Position numbers and translations under genes: made by a program | IMG/VR virus record: IMGVR_UViG_2693429700_000020 | Strand: one strand, 5' to 3' | From: a virus | Lineage: Duplodnaviria; Heunggongvirae; Uroviricota; Caudoviricetes | DNA length: 14,388 bases | Shown: positions 1 through 14,388 of the stretch, piece after piece | Layout: every line of letters starts with the position of its first letter | Numbering within the stretch: position 1 is the stretch's first letter | Notes under the pieces: model-generated | Database searches by the model: none | What the model was told of the DNA's origin: nothing | What the model saw: the letters and a program-made list of their open reading frames with translations, nothing else

Positions 1-87
1 CTGTGAGTCATATTCATCCTGACTTTCCAGAACCATACGAATCGCCCGCTGACGGACTTCGGGGGAAAAACGAGTATTTTTAGTCAT
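1..87 (-). CDS. IS3-family transposase OrfA, N-terminal 29 codons (partial at window edge)
   Basis: ATG at 87..85 preceded by a GAGG ribosome-binding site; translation MTKNTRFSPEVRQRAIRMVLESQDEYDSQ matches the recalled N-terminus of IS629/IS1203-type OrfA. Confidence 0.7.
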   Translation of the reverse strand, partial: MTKNTRFSPEVRQRAIRMVLESQDEYDSQ

Positions 88-141
88 CCTGTTTACCTCT
101 TTCTCAGGGAGTTTAGTCTCCAGGATTTCCGGGGCGGTTCA
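1..141 (-). mobile_element. IS3-family insertion sequence (IS629/IS1203-like), terminal 141 bp; element continues beyond the left window edge
   Basis: Reverse complement of 88-141 reads TGAACCGCCCCGGAAATCCTGGAGACTAAACTCCCTGAGAAAGAGGTAAACAGG, a TGA-initiated terminal inverted repeat as I recall it for IS629-like elements, followed by the orfA start. Recalled from memory, not searched. Confidence 0.7.
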
Positions 142-152
142 GCTAAGCGAGC

Positions 153-174
153 AATAACACCGTGACATGTCACA
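153..174. repeat. Copy 1 of a conserved block containing the 12-bp perfect palindrome GTGACATGTCAC (162-173)
   Basis: AATAACACC-GTGACATGTCACA; the same block recurs at 2601-2624. It lies 26 bp from the IS terminus. Confidence 0.8.
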
Positions 175-177
175 AAC

Positions 178-205
178 AGCCAGCCGATGAGCTGGCTTTG
201 TTTTA
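178..205. terminator. Stem-loop AGCCAGC-cgatga-GCTGGCT followed by TTGTTTTAT; possible terminator downstream of terL, direction ambiguous
   Basis: 7-bp inverted repeat with a T-rich tract on the plus-strand side and GTTTGTG on the minus-strand side; sits 50 bp past the terL stop. Confidence 0.3.
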
Positions 206-247
206 TCCTCATCAGAGGATATCAACGACATTATCCCCACCAGCGGA

Positions 248-1723
248 TTAAGCATACGGGTCATAATCTGTGATGGCCTTGCCTTGCTGGTTCTGCTGCC
301 CAGGAATTCGCAGACGCTTCGACACAGGGAACGCAAACGTCAGCAGTAGCGCATCGCCTTTACCCGGCGAACGCCCAAGACGCTCTTTGATATCTTCCTT
401 CGGTTCGATAACGATTTTACCGTCCACACGAACTTTGTACTCTGCCGCCGACAGGTCGTCTGCTGTTTCCTGGTCATCCAGCATGCCGCCCAGCCTCAGC
501 CATGTCTTGCATGAATTGAACATCTCCCCACGCTTGTTGAGCATCTGCGGGTCAGTAGACGCGCCACCGAACGGAACAAGTTGCCATGTACGACCCCATC
601 CGTCACCGATTGACTTCAGACCGGTTCCGTAACCGAAGTCGATGAACACCGCGTCAGCCTGGTACTGGTCTTCAAAGTCAGCGATACGCTTCGCCATAAT
701 CAGATCGTCGGTGGTCTTGTTACCAGTCCATAGCACCTTACTGTGCAGCCCCTGCCGCAGGTATATCACCGCGTCATCAACGCCTGAGTATGCCGGGTCA
801 ACGCCGATTATCACCGGAGCATGTGCAACCTGCGCAGCGGTTACCACCCGTTTCATTGCCTCATCAGTAAGACCGGTAGGGATAAACTGCAATTCAGATG
901 CATCAGGGAATATGCCGCGCACACGGATTTTAACGAAGTCGCTGTCTTCCCCGTAGTCATCAACCCATTTCAGCAACTGCTGTTTGTTAGTGCCTTCCAC
1001 CGTCCGGCTGTCAATCTGCGCACACTTCCAGCGGTGTTTGTACTTGCGGAAACATTCACGGAAACGCCCGGTGTTACGCGTCGGGTTCCCGAACGCCACC
1101 CAGATGATTTCGGTGTCTTCGTCCGTCAGCGCACCCTCTGCTACCTCCCACACCAGATCGGCAATGTTCGACGCTTCATCGAATACCACGATGATGCGTT
1201 TGCGCTCGTTGTGTAGTCCGGCGAATGCCTCAGTGTTGTGCTCAGACCAGGGGATTGCGTCAGCTCGCCACCGCTTGTCGTGCCCAGGATCATTGCTGTA
1301 CATCGCGGTAGCGGTACAGGTAAACCAGTCTTTCGTGATAGCAAGGTTCGACCACTTGATAATTTCCGGCCAGGTCTTCGTTCGTAGCTGGTTGTCGGTG
1401 TTGGCGGTCACCACGACCTTACAATCCTCGCAGGTGGACATGCCCCAGTTGATCAGCATTGAGATGAATGCGGATTTACCAATACCGTGACCAGAAGCGC
1501 GTGCCAGCATAAGCGGCTGATAGCGCGTCTCTGGATTCTGCAGGTGATCACGTATCTCTCGGAACGCATCAGCCTGCCACTGACGTGGGCCGGTGGCATG
1601 TGCCAGTTCAGTCCCCTCTTCCCCCCACGGGAACGCATAGAGAGCATAGCCAAGCGGATCGTGAGTGAACCCTGCAATATCCTCGATCAACTGCTCTTCA
1701 GGAGATAACGCTGTATCTGTCAC
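248..1723 (-). CDS. terL: Phage terminase large subunit
   Basis: 491-aa ORF with a Walker A-like ARASGHGIGKS motif and terminase ATPase/nuclease-like layout; GTG start at 1723..1721 overlaps the terS stop (GTGA) and has an AGGATGG ribosome-binding site. Confidence 0.88.
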   Translation of the reverse strand: MTDTALSPEEQLIEDIAGFTHDPLGYALYAFPWGEEGTELAHATGPRQWQADAFREIRDHLQNPETRYQPLMLARASGHGIGKSAFISMLINWGMSTCEDCKVVVTANTDNQLRTKTWPEIIKWSNLAITKDWFTCTATAMYSNDPGHDKRWRADAIPWSEHNTEAFAGLHNERKRIIVVFDEASNIADLVWEVAEGALTDEDTEIIWVAFGNPTRNTGRFRECFRKYKHRWKCAQIDSRTVEGTNKQQLLKWVDDYGEDSDFVKIRVRGIFPDASELQFIPTGLTDEAMKRVVTAAQVAHAPVIIGVDPAYSGVDDAVIYLRQGLHSKVLWTGNKTTDDLIMAKRIADFEDQYQADAVFIDFGYGTGLKSIGDGWGRTWQLVPFGGASTDPQMLNKRGEMFNSCKTWLRLGGMLDDQETADDLSAAEYKVRVDGKIVIEPKEDIKERLGRSPGKGDALLLTFAFPVSKRLRIPGQQNQQGKAITDYDPYA

Positions 1724-2316
1724 TGATTACCATCCTGACGTTCTTTGAGTCGCTTCCTGGCTGCCGCTATGCGATCAGCAATTGTCACATTCACATTAAC
1801 ATCCAGGCGTTCTTTGAACGCGTTGACATCAACATGCTTACCAATCAGCTCAAGGTTCTTCACCTTGTCAGGCCATTTAATTTTTTTGAGGATTGTCTCT
1901 ATCGAATCCTCGTTCATGTTCATGATGGTCGATGACAGATCAAAGCCACTAAGCGTAGTGCGCCAGATTTTCGGCCACTCACGGATAGGTTTAAGGCTCC
2001 CATCGTCGTTGAGGATGTCGATCACGTCCATCTGGTCGATCTCCACTAGGCGCATGAGAACGTAATCAGCACTGACGCGCATTCGTTTGTTGCGCTCCTC
2101 CATCAACTCGGCAATCCGTTTTTGAATGCGTTCATCGCGCATCATGACACTGGCTTTAACTGCCGCTGTATTTGGGGAGAATCCTGCGTTAATCGCTGCC
2201 TGAGTCTGGTTTTCAGGCGTTTTGATGTATGACTGGCAATAAGCCTCCTGCATTGCTGTGAGCGGCTTAAATTGCGTTGATTTGCGTTTATAGGTTTTAG
2301 GTTCAGCAGGCATCAT
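1720..2316 (-). CDS. terS: Phage terminase small subunit (Terminase_2-like)
   Basis: Translation from the ATG pair at 2316/2313 (MMPAEPKTYKRK...LTAMQEAYCQSYIKTPENQTQAAINAGFSPNTAAVKASVMMRDERIQKRIAELMEE) matches the recalled small-terminase pattern. The 26 codons upstream in the track ORF are the translation of operator repeats and are not believed to be coding. GGTGG ribosome-binding site before the ATG. Confidence 0.8.
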   Translation of the reverse strand: MMPAEPKTYKRKSTQFKPLTAMQEAYCQSYIKTPENQTQAAINAGFSPNTAAVKASVMMRDERIQKRIAELMEERNKRMRVSADYVLMRLVEIDQMDVIDILNDDGSLKPIREWPKIWRTTLSGFDLSSTIMNMNEDSIETILKKIKWPDKVKNLELIGKHVDVNAFKERLDVNVNVTIADRIAAARKRLKERQDGNQ

Positions 2317-2348
2317 AACCACCGTGGTAATAGTTACCGTTGTGGTAA
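2316..2348. promoter_or_regulatory. Two adjacent operator-like palindromes (TAACC-accgt-GGTAA 2316-2330; TTACC-gttgt-GGTAA 2334-2348) abutting the terS start codon
   Basis: Same 15-bp TTACC-N5-GGTAA palindrome as in the immunity region; centres 18 bp apart; the first overlaps the terS ATG. Confidence 0.6.
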
Positions 2349-2354
2349 TAGTAA

Positions 2355-2386
2355 CATGCAAAATAAAGCCGCCATAGTTGGCGGCA
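2355..2386 (-). terminator. Rho-independent terminator after the 2391-2618 ORF, immediately before the terS operator sites
   Basis: Minus-strand reading gives GCCGCCA-acta-TGGCGGC followed by TTTATTTTG. Confidence 0.65.
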
Positions 2387-2390
2387 GTAT

Positions 2391-2618
2391 TCAAAGTCCA
2401 TCAAATTCATCGTAAAAACTCTCGTCAAGATACCCTTCCCATTTACCGCGAATGAAAATTACATCCTCGCCGCAAGGGTGCTGACTGTCGATAACTATAT
2501 CCCTCCTGGCGCAACCATACTTATGCATGAGAAATTTAACCTCTTTCGGAAAATTTGCTGAGTTATCTCTCATATCTTCAAGGTCGTAGCGTATTTTTGG
2601 CATAACACCTCGTGACAT
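2391..2618 (-). CDS. Hypothetical small protein (70-75 aa); start ambiguous between ATG 2618 and ATG 2603
   Basis: The ATG at 2618..2616 sits at the centre of the GTGACATGTCAC palindrome; the ATG at 2603..2601 is preceded by GAGGTG. No family recognised. Confidence 0.45.
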   Translation of the reverse strand: MSRGVMPKIRYDLEDMRDNSANFPKEVKFLMHKYGCARRDIVIDSQHPCGEDVIFIRGKWEGYLDESFYDEFDGL

Positions 2619-2624
2619 GTCACA
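2601..2624. repeat. Copy 2 of the conserved block with the 12-bp perfect palindrome GTGACATGTCAC (2612-2623)
   Basis: CATAACACCTC-GTGACATGTCACA; overlaps the stop codon of the 2620-2958 gene and the first ATG of the 2391-2618 ORF. Confidence 0.8.
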
Positions 2625-2958
2625 CTATTAATTTCGTTTCATGCCAACCTTTGGTCACCCAGCATTGCGAGTCACCATTACACGGGCATGAATTCACAGG
2701 AACTCTCTCGCCGCACTTACCGCAACGTTTTCTGCTGATCGATTTTATACGCCCGCGCACGCGTGCATCATCCTGGCGGATCAGTAACGCTATATACTCA
2801 CCAAATTCGTAAGGCGCACGCCCGGGGCGACGCGTGGCACAGTTACGCTCCAGCATTTCAATTTCCTGAGCATCAAGCACAATTTCCAGCTTACGCACAC
2901 CAGATGCAGCTTGTCTGGCTCTCTGAGCGGCTTTGCGCTCTGATGCTGATTTAGCCAT
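2620..2958 (-). CDS. Hypothetical basic protein with C-terminal Cys cluster (CGKCG...CPCNG...C), possible zinc-ribbon DNA-binding regulator
   Basis: ATG at 2958..2956 (the track ORF begins one codon earlier at TTG 2961); Lys/Arg-rich N-terminus and CxxC / CxC / C motifs. No confident family assignment. Confidence 0.5.
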   Translation of the reverse strand: MAKSASERKAAQRARQAASGVRKLEIVLDAQEIEMLERNCATRRPGRAPYEFGEYIALLIRQDDARVRGRIKSISRKRCGKCGERVPVNSCPCNGDSQCWVTKGWHETKLIV

Positions 2959-3232
2959 CAATATTTACCTTTATCGCGAACACTTTTACCGGTTTATCAC
3001 CGAAGTGGGGGTGTGTGATTGTTTTCACTTCATATCCTCCATACGGAACATCAATTCTGCAACTGGAGTCGTCGCGCTTCGGATATCCCTTTGTGATAAT
3101 CAGGCGGTCATACTCCCGGAACATAATTCGCTTATTCCAGTAGTCATTACACAGGCGATACTCCTCGGTTTTCTCGCCACGAATCATGGCATCGAAGTAT
3201 TCACCTTTTACGGCAAGTTGCAGGTTAGCCAC
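2951..3232 (-). CDS. ASCH/PUA-like domain protein (DUF3850-like)
   Basis: GTG start at 3232 preceded by AGGAGG; N-terminal LQLAVKGEYFDAMIRGEKTEEYR resembles the ASCH signature as I recall it. Confidence 0.5.
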   Translation of the reverse strand: MANLQLAVKGEYFDAMIRGEKTEEYRLCNDYWNKRIMFREYDRLIITKGYPKRDDSSCRIDVPYGGYEVKTITHPHFGDKPVKVFAIKVNIDG

Positions 3233-3509
3233 GACCTTCCTCCTTTGGCTTGTGAATTTGTATCGTCATGCCGCTTTGAGTGGTGACTACAATGACAGAA
3301 CCAGGCTGAAGGCTGTTAAGATTGAATGCTTCGTAAAACGAATCCAATGCCAGTGCTTTTTTATTCTTTCGGTTCCACCAACGCCATCCCTTGCTACAGG
3401 CTACACTGACAATCCACTGCCCACTCCTGTAAGCCATATAAAACCAGATGAGCAAAACCTGAAGGAAGGCCATCCAGTCAATAATCGTATATTTCGCGAA
3501 GGAGTCCAT
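3225..3509 (-). CDS. Small predicted membrane protein (about 94 aa)
   Basis: ATG at 3509..3507 overlaps the stop of the upstream gene (ATGA-type coupling); hydrophobic segment IIDWMAFLQVLLIWFYMAY. The track ORF 3225-3656 extends further upstream in-frame, but that extension overlaps the preceding gene. Confidence 0.5.
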   Translation of the reverse strand: MDSFAKYTIIDWMAFLQVLLIWFYMAYRSGQWIVSVACSKGWRWWNRKNKKALALDSFYEAFNLNSLQPGSVIVVTTQSGMTIQIHKPKEEGRG

Positions 3510-4584: not shown

Positions 4585-5061
4585 TCACTCTCCTTTGATG
4601 CCTATATTTACAGCCAGGCAAGCTTCTTCGAGCACCCAGTCAACAGCGTCTTTCCACGCACCAGTCCCAACTGGCGGATTCTCATTTTTTACCTGCTCAT
4701 AAAAACGCACCGCTTTAACCAGTCCTTCAGGCACTACAGGTACTGGCAAGGCAGCGTGACAGTAGAGTGGCATAGTTTTGTACAGGGGGGCGCCAGGACT
4801 TCCGTCAACCTGATTCCATTCTTCAACCCAGGCATCAACAACCGCTTTGCTGGTTGATACATGTTCTTCTGAATCTACATTTTGTCCTGATATACAGAAC
4901 ATAACTGGCTCTGCTTCCAGTGATGCGTCCAATACATCAAGCAATGCCAGTACAACCTCCGGCGTAGCCGCAGCATGAAAAGCCTGTAGGTTCTGCCACG
5001 TCGTCTCCTCCTTCGCGACCTCTGCCGCCTCTCGCAGTGCCTGATAGTCAATCTTGCTCAC
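4585..5061 (-). CDS. Ead/Ea22-like family protein
   Basis: GTG start at 5061 with AGGAGG ribosome-binding site; N-terminus MSKIDYQALREAAE... and PEVVLALLDVLD match the recalled Ead/Ea22-like pattern. Confidence 0.6.
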   Translation of the reverse strand: MSKIDYQALREAAEVAKEETTWQNLQAFHAAATPEVVLALLDVLDASLEAEPVMFCISGQNVDSEEHVSTSKAVVDAWVEEWNQVDGSPGAPLYKTMPLYCHAALPVPVVPEGLVKAVRFYEQVKNENPPVGTGAWKDAVDWVLEEACLAVNIGIKGE

Positions 5062-6238: not shown

Positions 6239-6241
6239 GAT

Positions 6242-6318
6242 TTACCCCTGAGGTAATTAAAAACCACATAAGACACGAAATCAATAGATTTTAGTATATT
6301 TTATTACCCACCAGGTAA
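6242..6318 (-). promoter_or_regulatory. Internal promoter flanked by two perfect operators (TTACCCCTGAGGTAA 6242-6256; TTACCCACCAGGTAA 6304-6318)
   Basis: Minus-strand -35 TTGATT (6284..6279), 17-bp spacer, -10 TTTAAT (6261..6256); operator centres 62 bp apart, the same geometry as the early promoter at 9347-9423. Confidence 0.6.
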
Positions 6319-6330
6319 TCATCTAGACGT

Positions 6331-8586: not shown

Positions 8587-8649
8587 TCACCCATAAGGTA
8601 ACAAAAATCAAGGATAGTTACCTATGGGGTGCATTTACCTGTTGGGTAA
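8587..8649. promoter_or_regulatory. Operator cluster between the Cro-like and repressor genes: TCACCCATAAGGTAA (8587-8601), TTACCTATGGGGTGC (8618-8632), TTACCTGTTGGGTAA (8635-8649)
   Basis: Three copies (one perfect, two near) of the palindrome in the divergent regulatory region; a minus-strand -35 TTGTTA / -10 TATTAT candidate overlaps the first site. Confidence 0.65.
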
Positions 8650-8704
8650 TATTGCTTTAAATTGAATCATCTACTGATTCATATATGAGGCGATTCTCCA
8701 GAAA

Positions 8705-9289: not shown

Positions 9290-9310
9290 AATCATATTTT
9301 TCAGTAAGTA

Positions 9311-9336
9311 AGCCGCCTTCTGGCGGCTTTTTTATT
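9311..9336 (+). terminator. Strong rho-independent terminator after the repressor gene
   Basis: AGCCGCC-ttct-GGCGGCT followed by TTTTTATT. Confidence 0.8.
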
Positions 9337-9346
9337 GCCTGTTCAA

Positions 9347-9423
9347 TTACCTAATGGGTAATTTTTTTAACTCATATCTATTGACATCAAACCAGATACG
9401 CATAATTATTACCTAAACGGTAA
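9347..9423 (+). promoter_or_regulatory. Early (pL-like) promoter flanked by two perfect operators (TTACCTAATGGGTAA 9347-9361; TTACCTAAACGGTAA 9409-9423)
   Basis: -35 TTGACA at 9381-9386; -10 within CATAATTAT at 9401-9409; operator centres 62 bp apart, the downstream one overlapping the -10 and start-site region. Confidence 0.7.
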
Positions 9424-9442
9424 CAGACCGAGGTAACAAGTT

Positions 9443-9595
9443 ATGCAGTGGAAAATCATCAACGGTTGGTACTGCGTTACTGCATGCGGATTCATGAGCT
9501 GGAAGTTCCGCACCTTACAGGAAGGCATTAAGTGGGCTTTCGTCAGCAAAGAAGCTCGCGATGTGGCCAACGATAACGAGATATGGGAGGGATGA
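9443..9595 (+). CDS. Small hypothetical protein (50 aa), first gene of the early operon
   Basis: ATG at 9443 with GAGG ribosome-binding site; stop TGA at 9593-9595 sits inside the ribosome-binding region of the next gene. Below the cutoff of the supplied ORF track. Confidence 0.4.
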   Translation: MQWKIINGWYCVTACGFMSWKFRTLQEGIKWAFVSKEARDVANDNEIWEG

Positions 9596-9597
9596 TA

Positions 9598-9897
9598 ATG
9601 AACGTTAATCAGCAGAAAAATCTTCAAAAAATCATGCTGGCATTCGACAAGGACTACCGCCTGTCAGAACAGCTATATGACCGACAAGTTGAACTGATTG
9701 AGAGTATCCGGCTTCACCAACTGGCCTCAACTTTCGACGTTGTAACAGGCAAAGGCGTTCGTCAGGAAGTGCTGGAGGCTGCTAAAGACAGCCCTGAGTT
9801 CGAAGAACTGATGGATGCCTACCGGCGCGAGGCAATGGCAATTATCGCCCGCTGGGATCTGGCTGATCAGCTTGATGGGCAGAGGGACGCGGCATGA
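9598..9897 (+). CDS. Hypothetical early protein (99 aa)
   Basis: ATG at 9598 preceded by GGGAGGG (the track ORF starts at 9583); stop overlaps the exonuclease start (ATGA). No family recognised. Confidence 0.5.
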   Translation: MNVNQQKNLQKIMLAFDKDYRLSEQLYDRQVELIESIRLHQLASTFDVVTGKGVRQEVLEAAKDSPEFEELMDAYRREAMAIIARWDLADQLDGQRDAA

Positions 9898-10715
9898 AGC
9901 CGGGAATTTATTTCGACATCAGCAACGAAGACTACCACGCCGGGGACGGCGTGAGTAAGTCGCAACTGGACATGGTTGCCAAGAATCCGGCGCTTCTTAA
10001 ATGGGTTCAGGCAGCACCAGAAGACGAAGAGAAAAAGTCTGCACTGGATATGGGAACCGCATTGCACTGTCTGCTTCTGGAGCCTGGAGAGTTCGACAAA
10101 CGCTTCATTGTTTCACCGAAATTCGATCGTCGGACGAAACAAGGTAAAGCTGACGAAGAGGCATTTCTTCGTGATGTGGCGGATATGGGGATTACGGTAC
10201 TTGATGCCGAGCAGTGGCGGAAACTGGAGCTGATGCGTGATAGCGCAATGGCTCACCCGGCGGCACGCTGGATGCTGGAAGCACCTGGTTACTGCGAAGC
10301 GTCAATGTACTGGAACGATGAAGAGACTGGTGAGTTGTGCCGAATTCGTCCAGACAAATGGCTGAACGAGCACAACGTGATCGTCGACGTGAAAAAGGTT
10401 GCAGATATGGAGCGTTTTGCACGTCACATCGAGGAATTCCGCTACCACGTGCAGGACGCAATGTACCGCGAAGGCGCAATGAGGGTTACTGGTCAGCCGC
10501 ATGGTTTTTTCTTTCTTGCCGTGAGCGAAAGCATTGATTGTGGTCGGTATCCGGTACGCGTGTTCGAGCTGGATGCGCCGGATGTCGATGCCGGGCACGC
10601 TCTGTTCCGCCGGGATCTGAATACCTATCACGAATGCCGCATCAACGATGAATGGGGCGGAGTGGAAATTATTAAACGTCCTGACTGGGCACGTAAACAG
10701 GATATGTATGTATGA
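9894..10715 (+). CDS. PD-(D/E)xK exonuclease, RecE C-terminal-domain-like (exodeoxyribonuclease VIII family)
   Basis: 273 aa; N-terminus MKPGIYFDISNEDYHAGDGVSKSQL and RIRPD ... IVDVKK catalytic motifs match the recalled RecE nuclease-domain pattern; translationally coupled to the annealing-protein gene. Confidence 0.7.
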   Translation: MKPGIYFDISNEDYHAGDGVSKSQLDMVAKNPALLKWVQAAPEDEEKKSALDMGTALHCLLLEPGEFDKRFIVSPKFDRRTKQGKADEEAFLRDVADMGITVLDAEQWRKLELMRDSAMAHPAARWMLEAPGYCEASMYWNDEETGELCRIRPDKWLNEHNVIVDVKKVADMERFARHIEEFRYHVQDAMYREGAMRVTGQPHGFFFLAVSESIDCGRYPVRVFELDAPDVDAGHALFRRDLNTYHECRINDEWGGVEIIKRPDWARKQDMYV

Positions 10716-11593
10716 GCAATGATATCGCAATCACATCACAACCAGGCGCAACTGTAGGCACTGCTGCGGCAATCTTCAGCCCCGAGGGCATGAATCAACT
10801 GGTGCGTTTCGAGGAGTTGATGTCACAAAGCAAAGCGACTGTACCGAAACATCTTGAAGGCAAACCTGCCGATTGCCTGGCGGTGACCATGCAGGCGGCA
10901 CAGTGGGGAATGAACCCGTTCGCCGTGGCGCAGAAAACGCATGTGGTAAACGGAACGTTAGGCTACGAAGCACAGTTGGTAAACGCGGTCGTATCCTCTT
11001 CCAGCCTGCTGGCGACACGCCTGAATTATCGCTGGAGCGGTGACTGGTCGAATGTTAACGGCAAAACAGATAAATCACCGAATCTGACGGTAACTGTGTC
11101 AGCAGTTCTTAAAGGAGAAGCAGAACCACGTGAGCTTACCATCAGTATGGCGCAAGCCGGAGTGCGTAACTCTCCATTGTGGGAACAGGATCCGCGCCAG
11201 CAGCTCGCCTATCTTTGCACGAAACGATGGGCTCGCCTGCACGCTCCTGATGTACTTCTCGGTGTTTACACCCCTGACGAATTACAGGAAACGGCACCGC
11301 GCGTTGAGCGAGACATTACTCCGCAAATGACTACGGCTGCGGGAATGAACAGTCTGATCAACGCTAAATCAGTGAAAAAGCCTGATGAGCAAACGCGTAA
11401 AGCGGATAGCCGTGAGCCAGAAGAAATGCTGATGGCCTTTACCAGCGCAGCGATGAATTACAGCACTGTCTCCGAACTGGATAAGGCTTACAAATACATT
11501 GCACAAAAACTTTCAGATGATGACGAACTGCTGGCAAAAGCCACCGACGTTTACAGCGTTCGTCGGGAAGAATTAAACGAAACATCTATGTAA
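10712..11593 (+). CDS. RecT/Redbeta-family single-strand annealing protein
   Basis: 293 aa; QWGMNPF ... SPLWEQDPRQQLAYLCTKRWARL parallels the lambda Bet region GPWQSHPKRMLRHKAMIQCARLAF (recalled); sits directly downstream of the exonuclease. Confidence 0.65.
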   Translation: MSNDIAITSQPGATVGTAAAIFSPEGMNQLVRFEELMSQSKATVPKHLEGKPADCLAVTMQAAQWGMNPFAVAQKTHVVNGTLGYEAQLVNAVVSSSSLLATRLNYRWSGDWSNVNGKTDKSPNLTVTVSAVLKGEAEPRELTISMAQAGVRNSPLWEQDPRQQLAYLCTKRWARLHAPDVLLGVYTPDELQETAPRVERDITPQMTTAAGMNSLINAKSVKKPDEQTRKADSREPEEMLMAFTSAAMNYSTVSELDKAYKYIAQKLSDDDELLAKATDVYSVRREELNETSM

Positions 11594-11642
11594 CCACCAC
11601 CGCGGCGCCACGCGCGCCGCACTGCAACCAAGAGAGGTATTT

Positions 11643-11891
11643 ATGAAAGGTGCATTAGGTAAGAAGGAACTCCTGGCGGTGGTGCCACTGTCATGGAGCA
11701 CTATCGACCGTATGGAGCGCGCAGGGGAATTTCCTAAACGCTGGTATATCACCGATAAACGCTGCGCATGGAACCGTGATGAAGTTGAGCGTTGGCTTGA
11801 TGAACGTCAGGCAGCAAGCCCGGCAGAGTTCCAGGGTAAAAAACCTCCTGTTCAGCAACGTGTATATCGTCCTGTGAGCAACGCTGCATGA
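11643..11891 (+). CDS. AlpA-family phage regulatory protein / excisionase-like
   Basis: 82 aa; LAVVPLSWSTIDRMERAGEFPKRWYITDKRCAWNRDEVERWL matches the AlpA/Xis-type winged-helix pattern; commonly paired with P4-type integrases. Confidence 0.7.
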   Translation: MKGALGKKELLAVVPLSWSTIDRMERAGEFPKRWYITDKRCAWNRDEVERWLDERQAASPAEFQGKKPPVQQRVYRPVSNAA

Positions 11892-12033
11892 GTGCGCTGC
11901 TAAGGCACTGGAGCAAATGGTCAGGATGGTACTTATTCCTGGCCTCTGTTTCAGCATGGCTTTATCTGCTGGCATTAATTTTCAGAGAGGGTTGGATTAA
12001 GTGAGAAAGTTAAGCCGACTTGAAAAATATCAC

Positions 12034-12300
12034 ATGAACAAGGTTTCAATGCGCAGTCCGTCAAAGATTGTCGCCGTTACTCCTGCGGCGATAGAGATCG
12101 AAAAACGCGCGATTGAAAGAGAGAAAAAAGGGCAGTTCCGCATTGCCGCTCACCTTTGGCTTCAGTGTATGGATGTTGCTTCTGGTGATGTTGAGCGTGC
12201 AAGGATCGCGGTTCGCAGGGACCAATGTATCACAAAAGGTAACGGCCTTCGCCGTGGCGACTATAGCGGCATAGGATGTTGTGGGGTGGTTTATGACTAA
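12034..12300 (+). CDS. PerC-family transcriptional regulator-like protein
   Basis: RIAAHLWLQCMDVA ... ERARIAVRRDQCIT resembles the PerC signature as recalled; the most likely start is ATG 12049 (AAGG ribosome-binding site); the track ORF begins at 12001. Confidence 0.5.
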   Translation: MNKVSMRSPSKIVAVTPAAIEIEKRAIEREKKGQFRIAAHLWLQCMDVASGDVERARIAVRRDQCITKGNGLRRGDYSGIGCCGVVYD

Positions 12301-12943
12301 GAAATACACACTAATCTATGCAGATCCACCCTGGGCATACCGGGACAAAGCCGCAGATGGTAATCGCGGTGCCGGTTTTAAATATCCAGTTATGAGTGTG
12401 CTGGATATCTGCCGCCTTCCTGTGTGGGATTTGGCCGATGAAAACTGTCTGTTGGCCATGTGGTGGGTGCCAACACAACCACTCGAAGCACTAAAAGTTG
12501 TTGAAGCCTGGGGATTCCGTCTGATGACCATGAAGGGCTTCACGTGGATAAAATGTGGTAGTCGACAACCAGATAAACTGGTTATGGGTATGGGACACAT
12601 GACTCGCGCCAATAGTGAAGATTGCCTGTTTGCAGTTAAGGGAAAACTACCTCCGCGCATTAATGCAGGGATCGTTCAGTCATTTACCGCACCGCGGCTT
12701 GAGCATTCAAGAAAACCAGATATCGTTCGTGAAAAACTTGTGCAATTGTTAGGCGATGTTTCTCGCATTGAACTGTTCGCCCGCCAGTCGTCTCATGGCT
12801 TCGATGTTTGGGGTAATCAGTGCGAAGACCCGGCCGTGCAACTACACCCAGGATACGCGTTGGATATTGGCGGATTAACAAATGCATTCAGCAATGCTCC
12901 TCTGTCACCAACAGACAACCAGGGGCGGGAGCGTGCAGCATGA
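12293..12943 (+). CDS. MT-A70 family DNA N6-adenine methyltransferase, orphan (no restriction partner in the window)
   Basis: ATG at 12293 with GGGGTGG ribosome-binding site; N-terminal YADPPWAY catalytic motif; the track ORF starts at 12281. Confidence 0.85.
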   Translation: MTKKYTLIYADPPWAYRDKAADGNRGAGFKYPVMSVLDICRLPVWDLADENCLLAMWWVPTQPLEALKVVEAWGFRLMTMKGFTWIKCGSRQPDKLVMGMGHMTRANSEDCLFAVKGKLPPRINAGIVQSFTAPRLEHSRKPDIVREKLVQLLGDVSRIELFARQSSHGFDVWGNQCEDPAVQLHPGYALDIGGLTNAFSNAPLSPTDNQGRERAA

Positions 12944-13134
12944 ACAGGGCATCACCAGCAGATTTAAGGAAATGCCTTGAAACTGCAAACATGCTTGCAC
13001 ACAGCGGGATCAGGTTTGTTCCTGTTCCCGCTGTCACTGATGCTGAATTTGCAACACTGTCAGCAATATTCGCAGATAAAATTGAATCACTGGCAGCAGA
13101 AGCCGAGATGGAAGAAAATCAGCAGAATAATTAA
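12940..13134 (+). CDS. Hypothetical small acidic protein (64 aa)
   Basis: ATG at 12940 overlaps the methyltransferase stop (ATGA) and has a GGGAG ribosome-binding site; the longer track ORF (12820-13134) overlaps the methyltransferase in another frame. Confidence 0.45.
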   Translation: MNRASPADLRKCLETANMLAHSGIRFVPVPAVTDAEFATLSAIFADKIESLAAEAEMEENQQNN

Positions 13135-13137
13135 ACG

Positions 13138-14388
13138 TTATTCCCCCGCCATCCACTTCTCAAACTTCGACGGGGAGAACGGAATCAGATCCGTATGCTC
13201 CCCGTTAATCCAGGAATCAATCATATCGGCCCACTGCTGCAACATGTAGGCGCGCTGTCTGGCGTATTCCGCTTTGTTATATACGGCGCGCACACCTTTC
13301 TGCTCATGTGCCAAAGCTTTTTCAATCCAGTCTGAAGGATAACCAGCCTCATGCAACAACGTACTGGCTGTACGGCGCATATCATGTACAGTGAAGTCCT
13401 GAATATGCTCACCATCTTCATTTATTATTTTCACCGTTCTGTCGATCAGAGAGTTCAGCGCGGCATTAGATAATGGCTTCCGGAAATTGTAACGACCAGG
13501 AACCAGATATTCACTTCCACCAGCGCACATCTGCAACCCGACCAATATATCCTGTGCCTGTTTAGGCAGGTAAATAACGTGCGCCCGGCTTCCCTTCATG
13601 CGGTCTGGAGGAATTGTCCATGTCCATTTTTTAAAATCTATTTCATCCCACGATGCATTGGTGAATTCGCCCTTACGAACCATAGTGATAAGCACCAGTT
13701 TTAAAGCCATTTTCATAGTGCCCATAGCACCAATGGCATCCAGCGTGCGGAAGAACAGGCCAATTTCTTCTGGTGTCAGTGTTCGCTCTCGTGGTTTAAA
13801 TATGGCGATAGACGAAGGTTTAATGTCAGCCGCAGGATTAAACAAACCATGACCACGGTCATTGGCGTGACGGTATACGCTACTGATGATCTCCCTGGCC
13901 TGCACTGCTGTTGCCCGGCCACCGCGTTCGACAATCCGGTCACACAAATCACGAACCATCGATGTGGTAATTTCAGCCATCATTTTATTGCCAAGAACCG
14001 GAAGTATGTCCCGGTCGATCACCGCCTGTTTCATTGCGCGGGTACTGTCAGCCAGGATGACGTGTTTCATATAACTGTCGGTATGTACCGCAAACGTCTC
14101 GGCACCACGAATCTTTTTGATACCGTCACGTTTAGCCGCAGCCGGTGACTGGCCTGCTTTAAGCAGCTTCTTTGCAGCAATCAGTTCTTCTCGCGCTTCT
14201 GCCAGGCTGATACCGTCACGCCCATACTGCCCGATTACCAGCGTTTCGCGGCGACCGTTGATACGGTAGTCGTAGCGAAACGAGACCGTGCCTGACGTAA
14301 GCACAGCTACATACAGCCCGTCACGATCGGAGACCTTGTACAGTTTGTCCTGCGGCTTGAGGTTTTTTAATTTTGTATCGGTAAGCAC
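13138..14388 (-). CDS. int: Tyrosine integrase, P4-type (N-terminus runs off the right window edge)
   Basis: 416 aa in window; N-terminal LTDTKLKNLKPQDKLYKVSDRDGLYVAV arm-binding-type region; C-terminal HDMRRTASTLLHEAGYPSDWIEKALAH ... VRAVYNKAEY contains the catalytic H-x-x-R and Tyr. Confidence 0.9.
   Translation of the reverse strand: MLTDTKLKNLKPQDKLYKVSDRDGLYVAVLTSGTVSFRYDYRINGRRETLVIGQYGRDGISLAEAREELIAAKKLLKAGQSPAAAKRDGIKKIRGAETFAVHTDSYMKHVILADSTRAMKQAVIDRDILPVLGNKMMAEITTSMVRDLCDRIVERGGRATAVQAREIISSVYRHANDRGHGLFNPAADIKPSSIAIFKPRERTLTPEEIGLFFRTLDAIGAMGTMKMALKLVLITMVRKGEFTNASWDEIDFKKWTWTIPPDRMKGSRAHVIYLPKQAQDILVGLQMCAGGSEYLVPGRYNFRKPLSNAALNSLIDRTVKIINEDGEHIQDFTVHDMRRTASTLLHEAGYPSDWIEKALAHEQKGVRAVYNKAEYARQRAYMLQQWADMIDSWINGEHTDLIPFSPSKFEKWMAGE

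Follow-up and report, generated by a model that had tools for sequence, protein, structure and literature searches.

A PerC-like gene and an orphan MT-A70 methyltransferase gene in the distal part of a probable early-left operon of a phiV10/epsilon15-type prophage

Between the recombination module and the integrase of a tailed-phage sequence (IMG/VR record IMGVR_UViG_2693429700_000020) lie a PerC-like gene and an adenine methyltransferase gene, which raises the question whether this pair is cargo for lysogenic conversion or protection from restriction, or an ordinary part of the phage lineage. The whole stretch of 14,388 nt, referred to as the window, was analysed. The original prediction placed an orphan adenine methyltransferase, a PerC-like regulator and small ORFs in this interval, and every element was found by ORF reading and profile matches (Table 1). 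The ORFs from the AlpA/Xis gene to the Orf63 homologue form a chain on the + strand (11643–13134) in which neighbours overlap by 4–8 nt, and the stop codon of the last gene is 3 nt from that of the integrase.

Comparison of positions 11600–13200 with phiV10 (NC_007804.2) gave a nucleotide identity of 98.5%, with point differences only, and the region was found in 561 of 5,426 complete E. coli genomes, where the integrase adjoins guaA. The order and labels of PhiV10p36–p32 are the same as here, i.e. AlpA, membrane protein, PerC-type ‘transcriptional activator’, DNA methyltransferase, DUF1382 and integrase, and gp33–gp29 of epsilon15 are the counterparts of these genes. Epsilon15 differs in its last gene and in carrying an additional small gene in the PerC–methyltransferase interval, whereas phiV10 is annotated with one fused gene for RecE and RecT, which are two ORFs in the window. 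The hairpin in the recT–AlpA interval has an equivalent in epsilon15, annotated ‘stem-loop; transcriptional pausing’; known RNA families gave no match in the window at gathering score. The segment 11643–13134 is the known and annotated distal part of the early operon in a phiV10/epsilon15-type prophage that is common in E. coli. It is unremarkable, save that PerC-type genes repeatedly stand just upstream of phage adenine methyltransferase genes, which is possibly unreported.

Table 1. Positions of the features discussed in the text
Feature	Position in window	Strand	Match or motif
Terminator after repressor gene	9310–9329		
Operator palindromes flanking the promoter	9346–9362 and 9408–9424	+	ATTACC-N5-GGTAA(T/C)
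Early-left (PL-like) promoter	9346–9424	+	TTGACA-17-AATTAT at 9381–9409; 10/12 matches in scan
GC-only 7-bp hairpin without U tract, recT–AlpA interval	11602–11620	+	Read from sequence
AlpA-family excisionase/regulator, 82 aa	11643–11891	+	PF05930, E 3.1e-5; phrog_66 ‘excisionase and transcriptional regulator’, E 2e-16
Single-pass membrane peptide, 38 aa	11888–12004	+	phrog_17484, E 2.6e-27
PerC-like small helical protein, 99 aa from GTG 12001	12001–12300	+	PF06069, phrog_868
Orphan MT-A70 (beta-class) N6-adenine methyltransferase, 216 aa	12293–12943	+	PF05063; DPPW at residues 11–14
Lambda Orf63/DUF1382 homologue, 64 aa	12940–13134	+	PF07131; PDB 8DSB
P4-type tyrosine integrase, convergent	13138–14388	-	PF13356, PF00589, PF22022

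The start of the accessory genes, originally set at 11917, had to be corrected. This position is the ATG of a 27-codon ORF that lies in the PerC-like frame and is closed by TAA at 11998–12000, and the true small gene, in another frame, is that of the 38-aa membrane peptide. The latter shares an ATGA overlap with the AlpA stop and a GTGA overlap with the PerC-like start. Differences among four phages in the 38-aa frame were distributed 24/13/54 over codon positions 1/2/3, with third positions enriched. Because of the in-frame TAA, and because this enrichment favours the overlapping 38-aa frame, the 11917 ORF was rejected for this window both as a gene and as an N-terminal extension of PerC. In Salmonella relatives, gene callers do prolong PerC through the 11917-type frame (as in P0011). 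The 38-aa gene is annotated in phiV10, epsilon15 and Tyrion and is missed by PGAP in E. coli genomes. Its omission is one annotation lesson of the locus; another is that neither ‘PerC transcriptional activator’ nor ‘DNA methyltransferase’ is a verified label.

The methyltransferase matched PF05063 over HMM positions 1–172 of 172 (E 4e-22, 79.4 bits against a cut-off of 23.9), and its DPPW motif, named in the original prediction, was intact. It was found that D11-P12-P13-W14, S139, K141, P142, E160, F162, R164, G174 and N175 were invariant in an alignment of eight sequences with identity down to 36%, which ruled out degenerate catalytic motifs, a counter-finding named beforehand. The enzyme also matched the structures of Tetrahymena MTA1 and METTL3, and its motifs aligned with those of MTA1 (DPPW, SQKPE and LEIFAR). 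The description of the enzyme as an orphan holds, as no restriction enzyme lies beside it or among the other window ORFs, in which the RecE-like recombination exonuclease is the sole nuclease. The phiV10 annotation, read for the whole genome apart from ∼3.4 kb at one end, likewise contained no restriction enzyme. PADLOC returned ‘MTase_II’ as the sole match on the window; the neighbouring gene for a cognate endonuclease that would mark a Type II restriction-modification system was not found.

Residues 1–187 of the methyltransferase were 83% identical to gp5 of phage PA8, M.EcoPA8orf6770P. This protein and M.EcoGV, both from Stx2a phages, are likewise MT-A70 enzymes with DPPW that are encoded near the integrase in the prophage and followed by a DUF1382 gene. 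In contrast, the C-terminal tails are unrelated past residue 187, the last 29 residues of the window enzyme being different from those of the Stx-phage enzymes. The upstream genes are also non-homologous, PerC-like in the window and PNB-2 in PA8, a 143-aa winged helix-turn-helix (wHTH) protein that forms an rRNA-directed holoenzyme. In PMC10810198, M.EcoGV is called ‘highly similar’ to PA8 gp5 and is stated to methylate GATC in vivo when overproduced; in PMC6602927, it is entered as a GATC ‘Dam homolog’ with a specificity determined by PacBio. Purified M.EcoPA8orf6770P alone was almost inactive on dam-minus DNA in vitro (PMC10810198), and the GATC specificity of this enzyme class is therefore contested.

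The window methyltransferase may act as M.EcoGV does, or as M.EcoPA8orf6770P without PNB-2, which would make it a Dam-like enzyme forming m6A on GATC of replicating phage DNA. Such methylation would keep phage DNA fully methylated where host Dam is limiting or absent, would shield it from MboI/DpnII-type enzymes, which cut GATC that is unmethylated, and could assist steps of phage development that depend on methylation. Protection of phage DNA from restriction, one of the roles originally proposed, is plausible. GATC was mildly under-represented in the window, with an observed/expected ratio of 0.65, a value that favours neither side. The GATC activity reported for the closest studied relative duplicates that of host Dam (PMC10810198, PMC6602927).

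The close match of the catalytic core with PA8 gp5 (83% identity) could also point elsewhere, namely to an enzyme acting mainly on RNA, which would place m6A in 16S rRNA and thereby tune translation and prophage induction, as proposed for M.EcoPA8orf6770P–PNB-2 of Stx2a phage PA8. The PA8 holoenzyme prefers 16S rRNA and 30S subunits, the gene increases spontaneous induction (PMC10810198), and the RNA methyltransferase METTL3 is among the nearest solved structures. Nevertheless, we regard this as quite improbable for the window enzyme. RNA preference in PA8 comes from PNB-2, and no PNB-2 homologue was found in the window; the tail suspected by the PA8 authors of binding PNB-2 is replaced, with the 27 C-terminal aa of the Stx-phage type, on which this binding is believed to depend, absent; and the methylated rRNA base was left unidentified in the PA8 paper (PMC10810198). 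The PerC-like protein was itself tried as a PNB-2 homologue and rejected, with no match by BLASTP and a probability of at most 1.6% by profile-sequence and profile-profile hhalign. PNB-2 and the wHTH-PerC fusions described below aligned weakly, in the generic wHTH part only. As a natural, tail-swapped close relative without PNB-2, the window enzyme is a handy test case for a methyltransferase whose substrate (GATC DNA or 16S rRNA) is disputed.

As predicted, a PerC-family gene stands immediately upstream of the methyltransferase gene, whose start it overlaps by 8 nt (GTTTATGACTAA). The PerC-like ORF matched PF06069 with E 6e-7 and 30.1 bits (cut-off 22.6), the match being confined to residues 35–80 on HMM positions 5–50 of 90, whereas phrog_868 was matched over the full length (1–99/99, E 5.7e-62). 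The N-terminal residues are conserved in Tyrion; annotated alternative starts are ATG 12034 and ATG 12049. A tblastn search with the protein (E 1e-3) gave 36 matches, all in enterobacterial phage records and most of them epsilon15/phiV10-like. Because the HMM match was partial and this search returned only epsilon15-type homologues, the protein is considered remote from PerC/Pch. It is a small helical protein that shares the conserved core of PerC/Pch of EPEC/EHEC above the Pfam cut-off. It differs from them in a conserved N-terminal helix and a YSGI..GVVYD tail of its own, and its gene is a constant member of the early operon in a podophage lineage rather than a moron at a prophage end. No tie to host virulence genes was found for it.

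The AF2 model of the PerC-like protein showed four helices and a disordered tail. In a BFVD fold search, the best matches were 60-aa phage proteins, one of them annotated as ANR (TM 0.85, rmsd 1.0 Å), with non-significant E-values, and the ANR profile NF033650 scored 23.6 bits, below its cut-off of 32. The PDB fold search yielded nothing significant, its matches being MIT/TPR-like helical bundles with E of at least 0.39 and nothing else, and HTH-containing structures were absent among the fold matches. ANR proteins work through protein-protein contacts with AraC-type regulators and H-NS (PMC5570504, PMC4983702, PMC10148876). The model suggests that the PerC-like protein would be an ANR/PerC-type helical bundle without an HTH. 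It would therefore more probably work through contact with a protein partner, be it a regulator or a nucleoid component such as H-NS, than as a classical DNA-binding activator. A literature search on epsilon15 and PerC found nothing relevant.

When the genes would be expressed was considered from the promoter region. The palindromes flanking the early-left promoter share their motif with the sites annotated as repressor-binding upstream of gp37 in epsilon15, and seven ATTACC-N5-GGTAA sites were observed in the window versus 0.13 expected. Consensus scans found no further promoter on the + strand at 9409–13134 and no terminator after 13134. Thus, the pair has no promoter and terminator of its own as a lysogenic-conversion moron would, although consensus scans are a weak test of this. 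Since the sole consensus-like promoter of the operon is flanked by operators, the PerC-like and methyltransferase genes are predicted to be expressed after infection or induction and not in the stable lysogen. Expression in the lysogen, such as has been described for PA8 gp6–gp5, could come from read-through of the repressor gene past its terminator or from an unrecognised internal promoter.

The explanation that we favour, with about even confidence, is that these genes form the distal, coupled end of an early-left operon under repressor control, in a phiV10/epsilon15-type (Uetakevirus) prophage beside guaA, with the gene roles proposed here. The operon would run from the promoter and operators through two small genes, RecE-like, RecT, AlpA/Xis, the 38-aa peptide, PerC-like and MT-A70 genes to the Orf63 homologue, and its distal genes would be translationally coupled. 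Gene identities, catalytic motifs, overlaps, the operator-flanked promoter, lineage conservation and the lack of a restriction partner were observed directly. Both the PerC-like gene and the methyltransferase gene were present in all six epsilon15-type phages examined, and the PerC-like gene kept its AlpA and 38-aa neighbours in those whose annotation was read; the only variable slots were the PerC–methyltransferase interval and the site after the methyltransferase. Genes so constant across epsilon15-type phages, downstream of an operator-flanked promoter, are therefore lineage genes and not cargo, and the proposal of lysogenic-conversion cargo was not supported. The known conversion gene of phiV10 (oac) sits elsewhere in the genome.

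It is highly improbable that the pair is conversion cargo expressed by the prophage, through which host (e.g. virulence) genes would be regulated and the host epigenome rewritten. Such a role would fit the membership of the protein in the PerC Pfam family, the control of LEE, flagella and curli by Pch/PerC of EHEC and EPEC prophages (PMC7369912), and the report that PA8 gp6–gp5 are transcribed near stationary phase in lysogens. However, the PerC-like gene is also maintained in epsilon15-type phages whose hosts, Salmonella, Klebsiella and Enterobacter, have no LEE, its kinship with PerC/Pch is remote, no promoter of its own was detected, and GATC methylation would give no new motif to a dam+ host. 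Deletion and fusion variants were also frequent in resident prophages (P0117, P0122 and P0137), suggesting weak selection in the lysogen.

A different role was considered from the distribution of PerC domains. A profile search with the PerC-like family gave 61 cluster representatives in all, and the distant relatives were true PerC domains (PF06069-positive; hhalign 99%, E 9e-18), several of them with an N-terminal wHTH. In 7 of the 10 distant contexts that were read, an adenine methyltransferase gene was located 0–2 genes downstream of the PerC-domain gene. Its family varied: MT-A70 (L015, L022, L024), D12-class Dam (L017, L019) or PF05869 Dam (L020, L026). The Uetakevirus early-left operon is a second setting in which the pairing recurs, and a natural in-frame PerC–methyltransferase fusion was found (P0123). 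PerC-domain proteins might thus be functionally coupled to phage orphan adenine methyltransferases, as controllers of expression or modulators of a methylation-dependent host process, in which case the window pair would form one functional unit instead of being accessory genes with no relation to each other. We consider this coupling unlikely. The fusion depends on a one-base difference within a run of T and could reflect faulty assembly. Eight of the 10 contexts (the 7 with a methyltransferase and L016) are from phages with a repressor/Cro/CII-type early-right block, in the order replication gene, PerC, x, methyltransferase and usually RusA, and are therefore not independent. In these blocks the PerC gene shares an overlap with the replication gene before it and is often separated from the methyltransferase gene by others. 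No methyltransferase was recognisable in L016, and the mobilisable plasmid and P4-like element contexts have none; that the methyltransferases come from unrelated families speaks against direct partnership between the proteins. DUF1317, wHTH or DndB-like genes separate the PerC-like and methyltransferase genes in other Uetakeviruses, and the overlap in the window is therefore a lineage-specific junction.

It is similarly doubtful that PerC-domain proteins, alone or fused to wHTH, are an unrecognised class of companions to phage orphan adenine methyltransferases. Such companions would either regulate the expression of the methyltransferase, much as C proteins do in restriction-modification systems, or act in the same methylation-dependent host pathway, and the window pair would be analogous in role, not homologous, to PNB-2/M.EcoPA8orf6770P. 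No report on the PerC family with phage methyltransferases was found in the literature. If phylogenetically robust, the position of PerC upstream of adenine methyltransferases of unrelated families would give this poorly understood family a functional context beyond virulence regulation.

The last gene of the favoured early-left operon, whose start forms an ATGA overlap with the methyltransferase stop, encodes a protein that matched PF07131 with E 2e-30 and 105 bits (cut-off 27), and residues 2–62 matched the NMR structure of lambda Orf63 (PDB 8DSB) with E 8.5e-13. DUF1382 is the family of lambda Orf63, which is reported to be pro-lytic (PMC10869804), and the homologue may likewise tilt development to lysis. 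Orf63 of the lambda exo-xis region is also a small PL-operon protein encoded near xis and int; it lies between exo and xis, whereas the window homologue follows xis and abuts the convergent integrase. The other lambda exo-xis genes (orf60a, orf61 and orf73) are absent from the window operon. An Ea22-like gene was observed elsewhere in the window, at 4585–5061 on the minus strand.

Pfam scans and megablast of the whole window identified it as a segment of a phiV10/epsilon15-type (Uetakevirus) prophage, in which terminase genes are followed by replication, immunity and recombination genes and then by the integrase. Over positions 11600-13200, identity was 98.5% with phage phiV10 and 100% with E. 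coli strain Z1323CEC0019, in which the prophage adjoins guaA, and 561 of 5,426 complete genomes of E. coli contained this segment. The genes from AlpA/Xis to DUF1382 form a chain with start/stop codon overlaps of 4-8 nt, and phiV10 carries the same annotations from AlpA to the integrase. The feature itself (orphan methyltransferase, PerC-like gene and small ORFs) was known before and is very common. Two overlapping ORFs encode the RecE-like exonuclease and RecT, likewise in phages Tyrion and BUCT711, whereas the phiV10 RefSeq record annotates a single fused 1761-nt recET gene.

Positions of the genes and regulatory elements in the window
Feature	Position	Strand	Basis or remark
RecE-like exonuclease and RecT	9894-11593		two overlapping ORFs
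AlpA/Xis	11643-11891	+	gene chain
Membrane peptide, 38 aa	11888-12004	+	PHROG match; codon-position substitutions
PerC-like protein	12001-12300	+	Pfam
MT-A70 methyltransferase	12293-12943	+	PF05063
DUF1382 (Orf63-like) protein	12940-13134	+	lambda Orf63 homologue
Integrase	13138-14388	-	converges on + strand chain
Promoter	9381-9409	+	TTGACA-17-AATTAT
Operator-like palindromes	2315-2349, 6241-6319, 8634-8650, 9346-9424		seven in total

The original prediction had placed the start of the region at 11917. An ATG in the PerC frame does lie there, but it is closed by a TAA at 11998-12000 and is not the small gene. The genuine small gene, a 38-aa ORF, uses a different frame, in which substitutions among four phages were distributed 24/13/54 over codon positions 1/2/3. 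This conserved gene is annotated in phage records; in the corresponding E. coli RefSeq genomes PGAP leaves it out and places the PerC-like start at a later ATG (83 aa). The last small ORF has as its lambda counterpart Orf63, an exo-xis region protein that is dimeric, has a solved structure and was reported to be pro-lytic. Only 3 nt separate the Orf63-like stop from that of the integrase gene, with no terminator (13132-13140), so early-left transcripts would run antisense through int. Unlike the window, epsilon15 has at this junction a spacer with an annotated RNase III site.

It had been proposed that the PerC-like and methyltransferase genes are cargo. This part of the interpretation, which was supported only partly overall, does not hold. 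The methyltransferase was found in all six annotated relatives examined (phiV10, PAS61, Tyrion, BUCT711, SPC32N and epsilon15), and the PerC-like gene recurs in epsilon15/phiV10-like phages. A tblastn search with the PerC-like protein returned 36 phage records, all enterobacterial and most of them epsilon15/phiV10-like; where the annotation of the latter was read, the gene lay behind the AlpA and 38-aa genes. Variable content was confined to two slots. The slot between PerC and the methyltransferase is empty in the window, phiV10 and PAS61, and holds DUF1317 in BUCT711, and DUF1317 plus a winged helix-turn-helix (wHTH) protein in Tyrion. In SPC32N it contains a small gene and a DndB/DGQHR protein of 355 aa, and in E. 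coli APEC E19035 the DndB/DGQHR protein is its sole annotated occupant. The slot after the methyltransferase holds an Orf63 homologue, NinI phosphatase, a wHTH protein or epsilon15 gp28. Because slot content varies among relatives, the PerC/methyltransferase overlap in the window is a junction specific to the lineage and does not reflect an ancestral coupling. Some relatives pair a DNA-sulfur-modification-associated protein with the adenine methyltransferase, and the 355-aa gene lies immediately 5' of the MT-A70 gene with a 4-nt overlap (SPC32N, L006:3948-5015; APEC E19035, L013:2230-3297). Decay was seen in prophage copies, with four variants in E. coli assemblies. P0117 joins the first 46 PerC residues to Orf63 and lacks the methyltransferase, P0122 has lost an internal part of PerC, and P0137 carries a truncated methyltransferase; in P0123 the T run at the junction is one base short, which fuses PerC in frame to the methyltransferase.

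A promoter scan found only one consensus-like + strand promoter upstream of these genes, located after the repressor gene and its terminator, and all genes from there through 13134 are tightly packed. Two 17-bp palindromes, ATTACC-N5-GGTAA(T/C), flank the promoter; in epsilon15 the same motif is annotated at the equivalent place as repressor-binding sites. From this sequence arrangement we infer expression of the region on infection or induction and silence in the stable lysogen, which argues against the lysogenic-conversion role suggested earlier, although the terminator may be read through or an internal promoter of atypical sequence may exist. Seven ATTACC-N5-GGTAA palindromes were present in the window against 0.13 expected by chance. 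Apart from the pair at the early-left promoter and a single one on the cro side, two lie between the DUF1064 and P genes, and another two, adjacent to each other, fall within the small-terminase ORF at its 5' end, which suggests that the repressor, or another protein, binds well beyond the immunity region.

A PerC-family-like gene overlapping the methyltransferase start was confirmed: the ORF scored above the Pfam gathering threshold, restricted to HMM positions 5-50 of 90, and the overlap is 8 nt. The family is small (61 cluster representatives in a profile search of 1.84 billion proteins, E at most 1e-3) and well conserved, including its YSGI..GVVYD tail. The AlphaFold model (mean pLDDT 75) showed four helices and a disordered tail. 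It had no significant match among solved structures, the nearest being helical protein-interaction modules. The nearest viral models were 60-aa proteins, one annotated as ANR (TM about 0.85, E-values non-significant), in agreement with an ANR profile match below threshold. ANR proteins exert their effect through binding to AraC-type regulators and H-NS (PMC5570504, PMC4983702, PMC10148876). The modelled helical fold, the ANR-like resemblances and this mode of action make protein-protein contact a more probable way of working than direct DNA binding.

The methyltransferase matched PF05063 across the full model, and DPPW and the remaining core residues did not vary in an alignment that extended down to 36% identity, so the degeneracy that would have spoken against the enzyme was not seen. 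It is an orphan, as predicted: neither the window nor the examined part of the phiV10 annotation (all but about 3.4 kb of that genome) contains a restriction enzyme gene. Over residues 1-187 the methyltransferase shares 83% identity with gp5 of Stx2a phage PA8 (M.EcoPA8orf6770P); beyond them the tails are unrelated. The PA8 enzyme was reported to be almost inactive in vitro when alone and to form a 1:1 complex with PNB-2, encoded by the gene upstream, whose preferred substrate is 16S rRNA (Gong et al., PMC10810198). By this likeness the window enzyme might act on rRNA, a live but weaker reading, since PNB-2 is absent from the window; the phiV10 lineage also has no wHTH protein at its position. 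The PerC-like protein was ruled out as a PNB-2 homologue by BLASTP and profile-profile comparison. M.EcoGV, highly similar to the PA8 enzyme, methylates GATC in vivo upon overproduction (noted in PMC10810198) and is entered, its specificity having been determined by PacBio, as a 'Dam homolog' for GATC (PMC6602927). For these reasons, a Dam-like GATC DNA methyltransferase that would target replicating phage DNA is the best-supported reading of the window copy, with moderate confidence given the dispute over what enzymes of this class act on. The disputed substrate of the clade is a testable question and one of two points of remaining value.

In Tyrion the PNB-2 position is occupied by a different protein, a winged HTH; this is the upstream one of two small paralogues bracketing the MT-A70 gene (L003:2284-2511 and L003:3145-3351; 31% identity, E 6e-5). 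In Stx2a phage 06-3462, the 76-aa protein upstream of the methyltransferase (L002:2774-3004) has only its last ~21 residues in common with PNB-2 (L004:2851-3282), 11 of them identical (ALYIDEFENAL). Full PNB-2 is therefore absent from some Stx-phage copies, and the comparison indicates a recombination junction just before the methyltransferase start.

Distant members of the PerC-like family were bona fide PerC domains (hhalign E 9e-18), several with a fused N-terminal winged HTH. Among ten genomic contexts read, seven had an adenine methyltransferase 0-2 genes downstream of PerC, of varying family: MT-A70 (L015, L022 and L024, split in the last), D12-class Dam (L017, L019) or PF05869 Dam (L020, L026). 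One (L016) had a ParB-HTH protein and no recognisable methyltransferase, and a mobilisable plasmid and a P4-like element had none. PerC genes thus stand upstream of orphan adenine methyltransferases in two operon settings, these contexts and Uetakevirus, a neighbourhood pattern that is the second point of remaining value; our literature search found no published description of such coupling. A strong caveat is that the seven, together with L016, have a single early-right block in common and so are not independent; its order is replication gene, PerC, x, methyltransferase and usually RusA, and it includes repressor, Cro and CII-type genes wherever the contig is long enough. A real functional coupling of the two genes is doubtful. 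In these eight early-right contigs, from metagenomes and genomes, seven have the adenine methyltransferase 0-2 genes after PerC and then usually RusA; PerC or wHTH-PerC overlaps not the methyltransferase but the replication-gene stop (HTH_36/Phg_2220_C).
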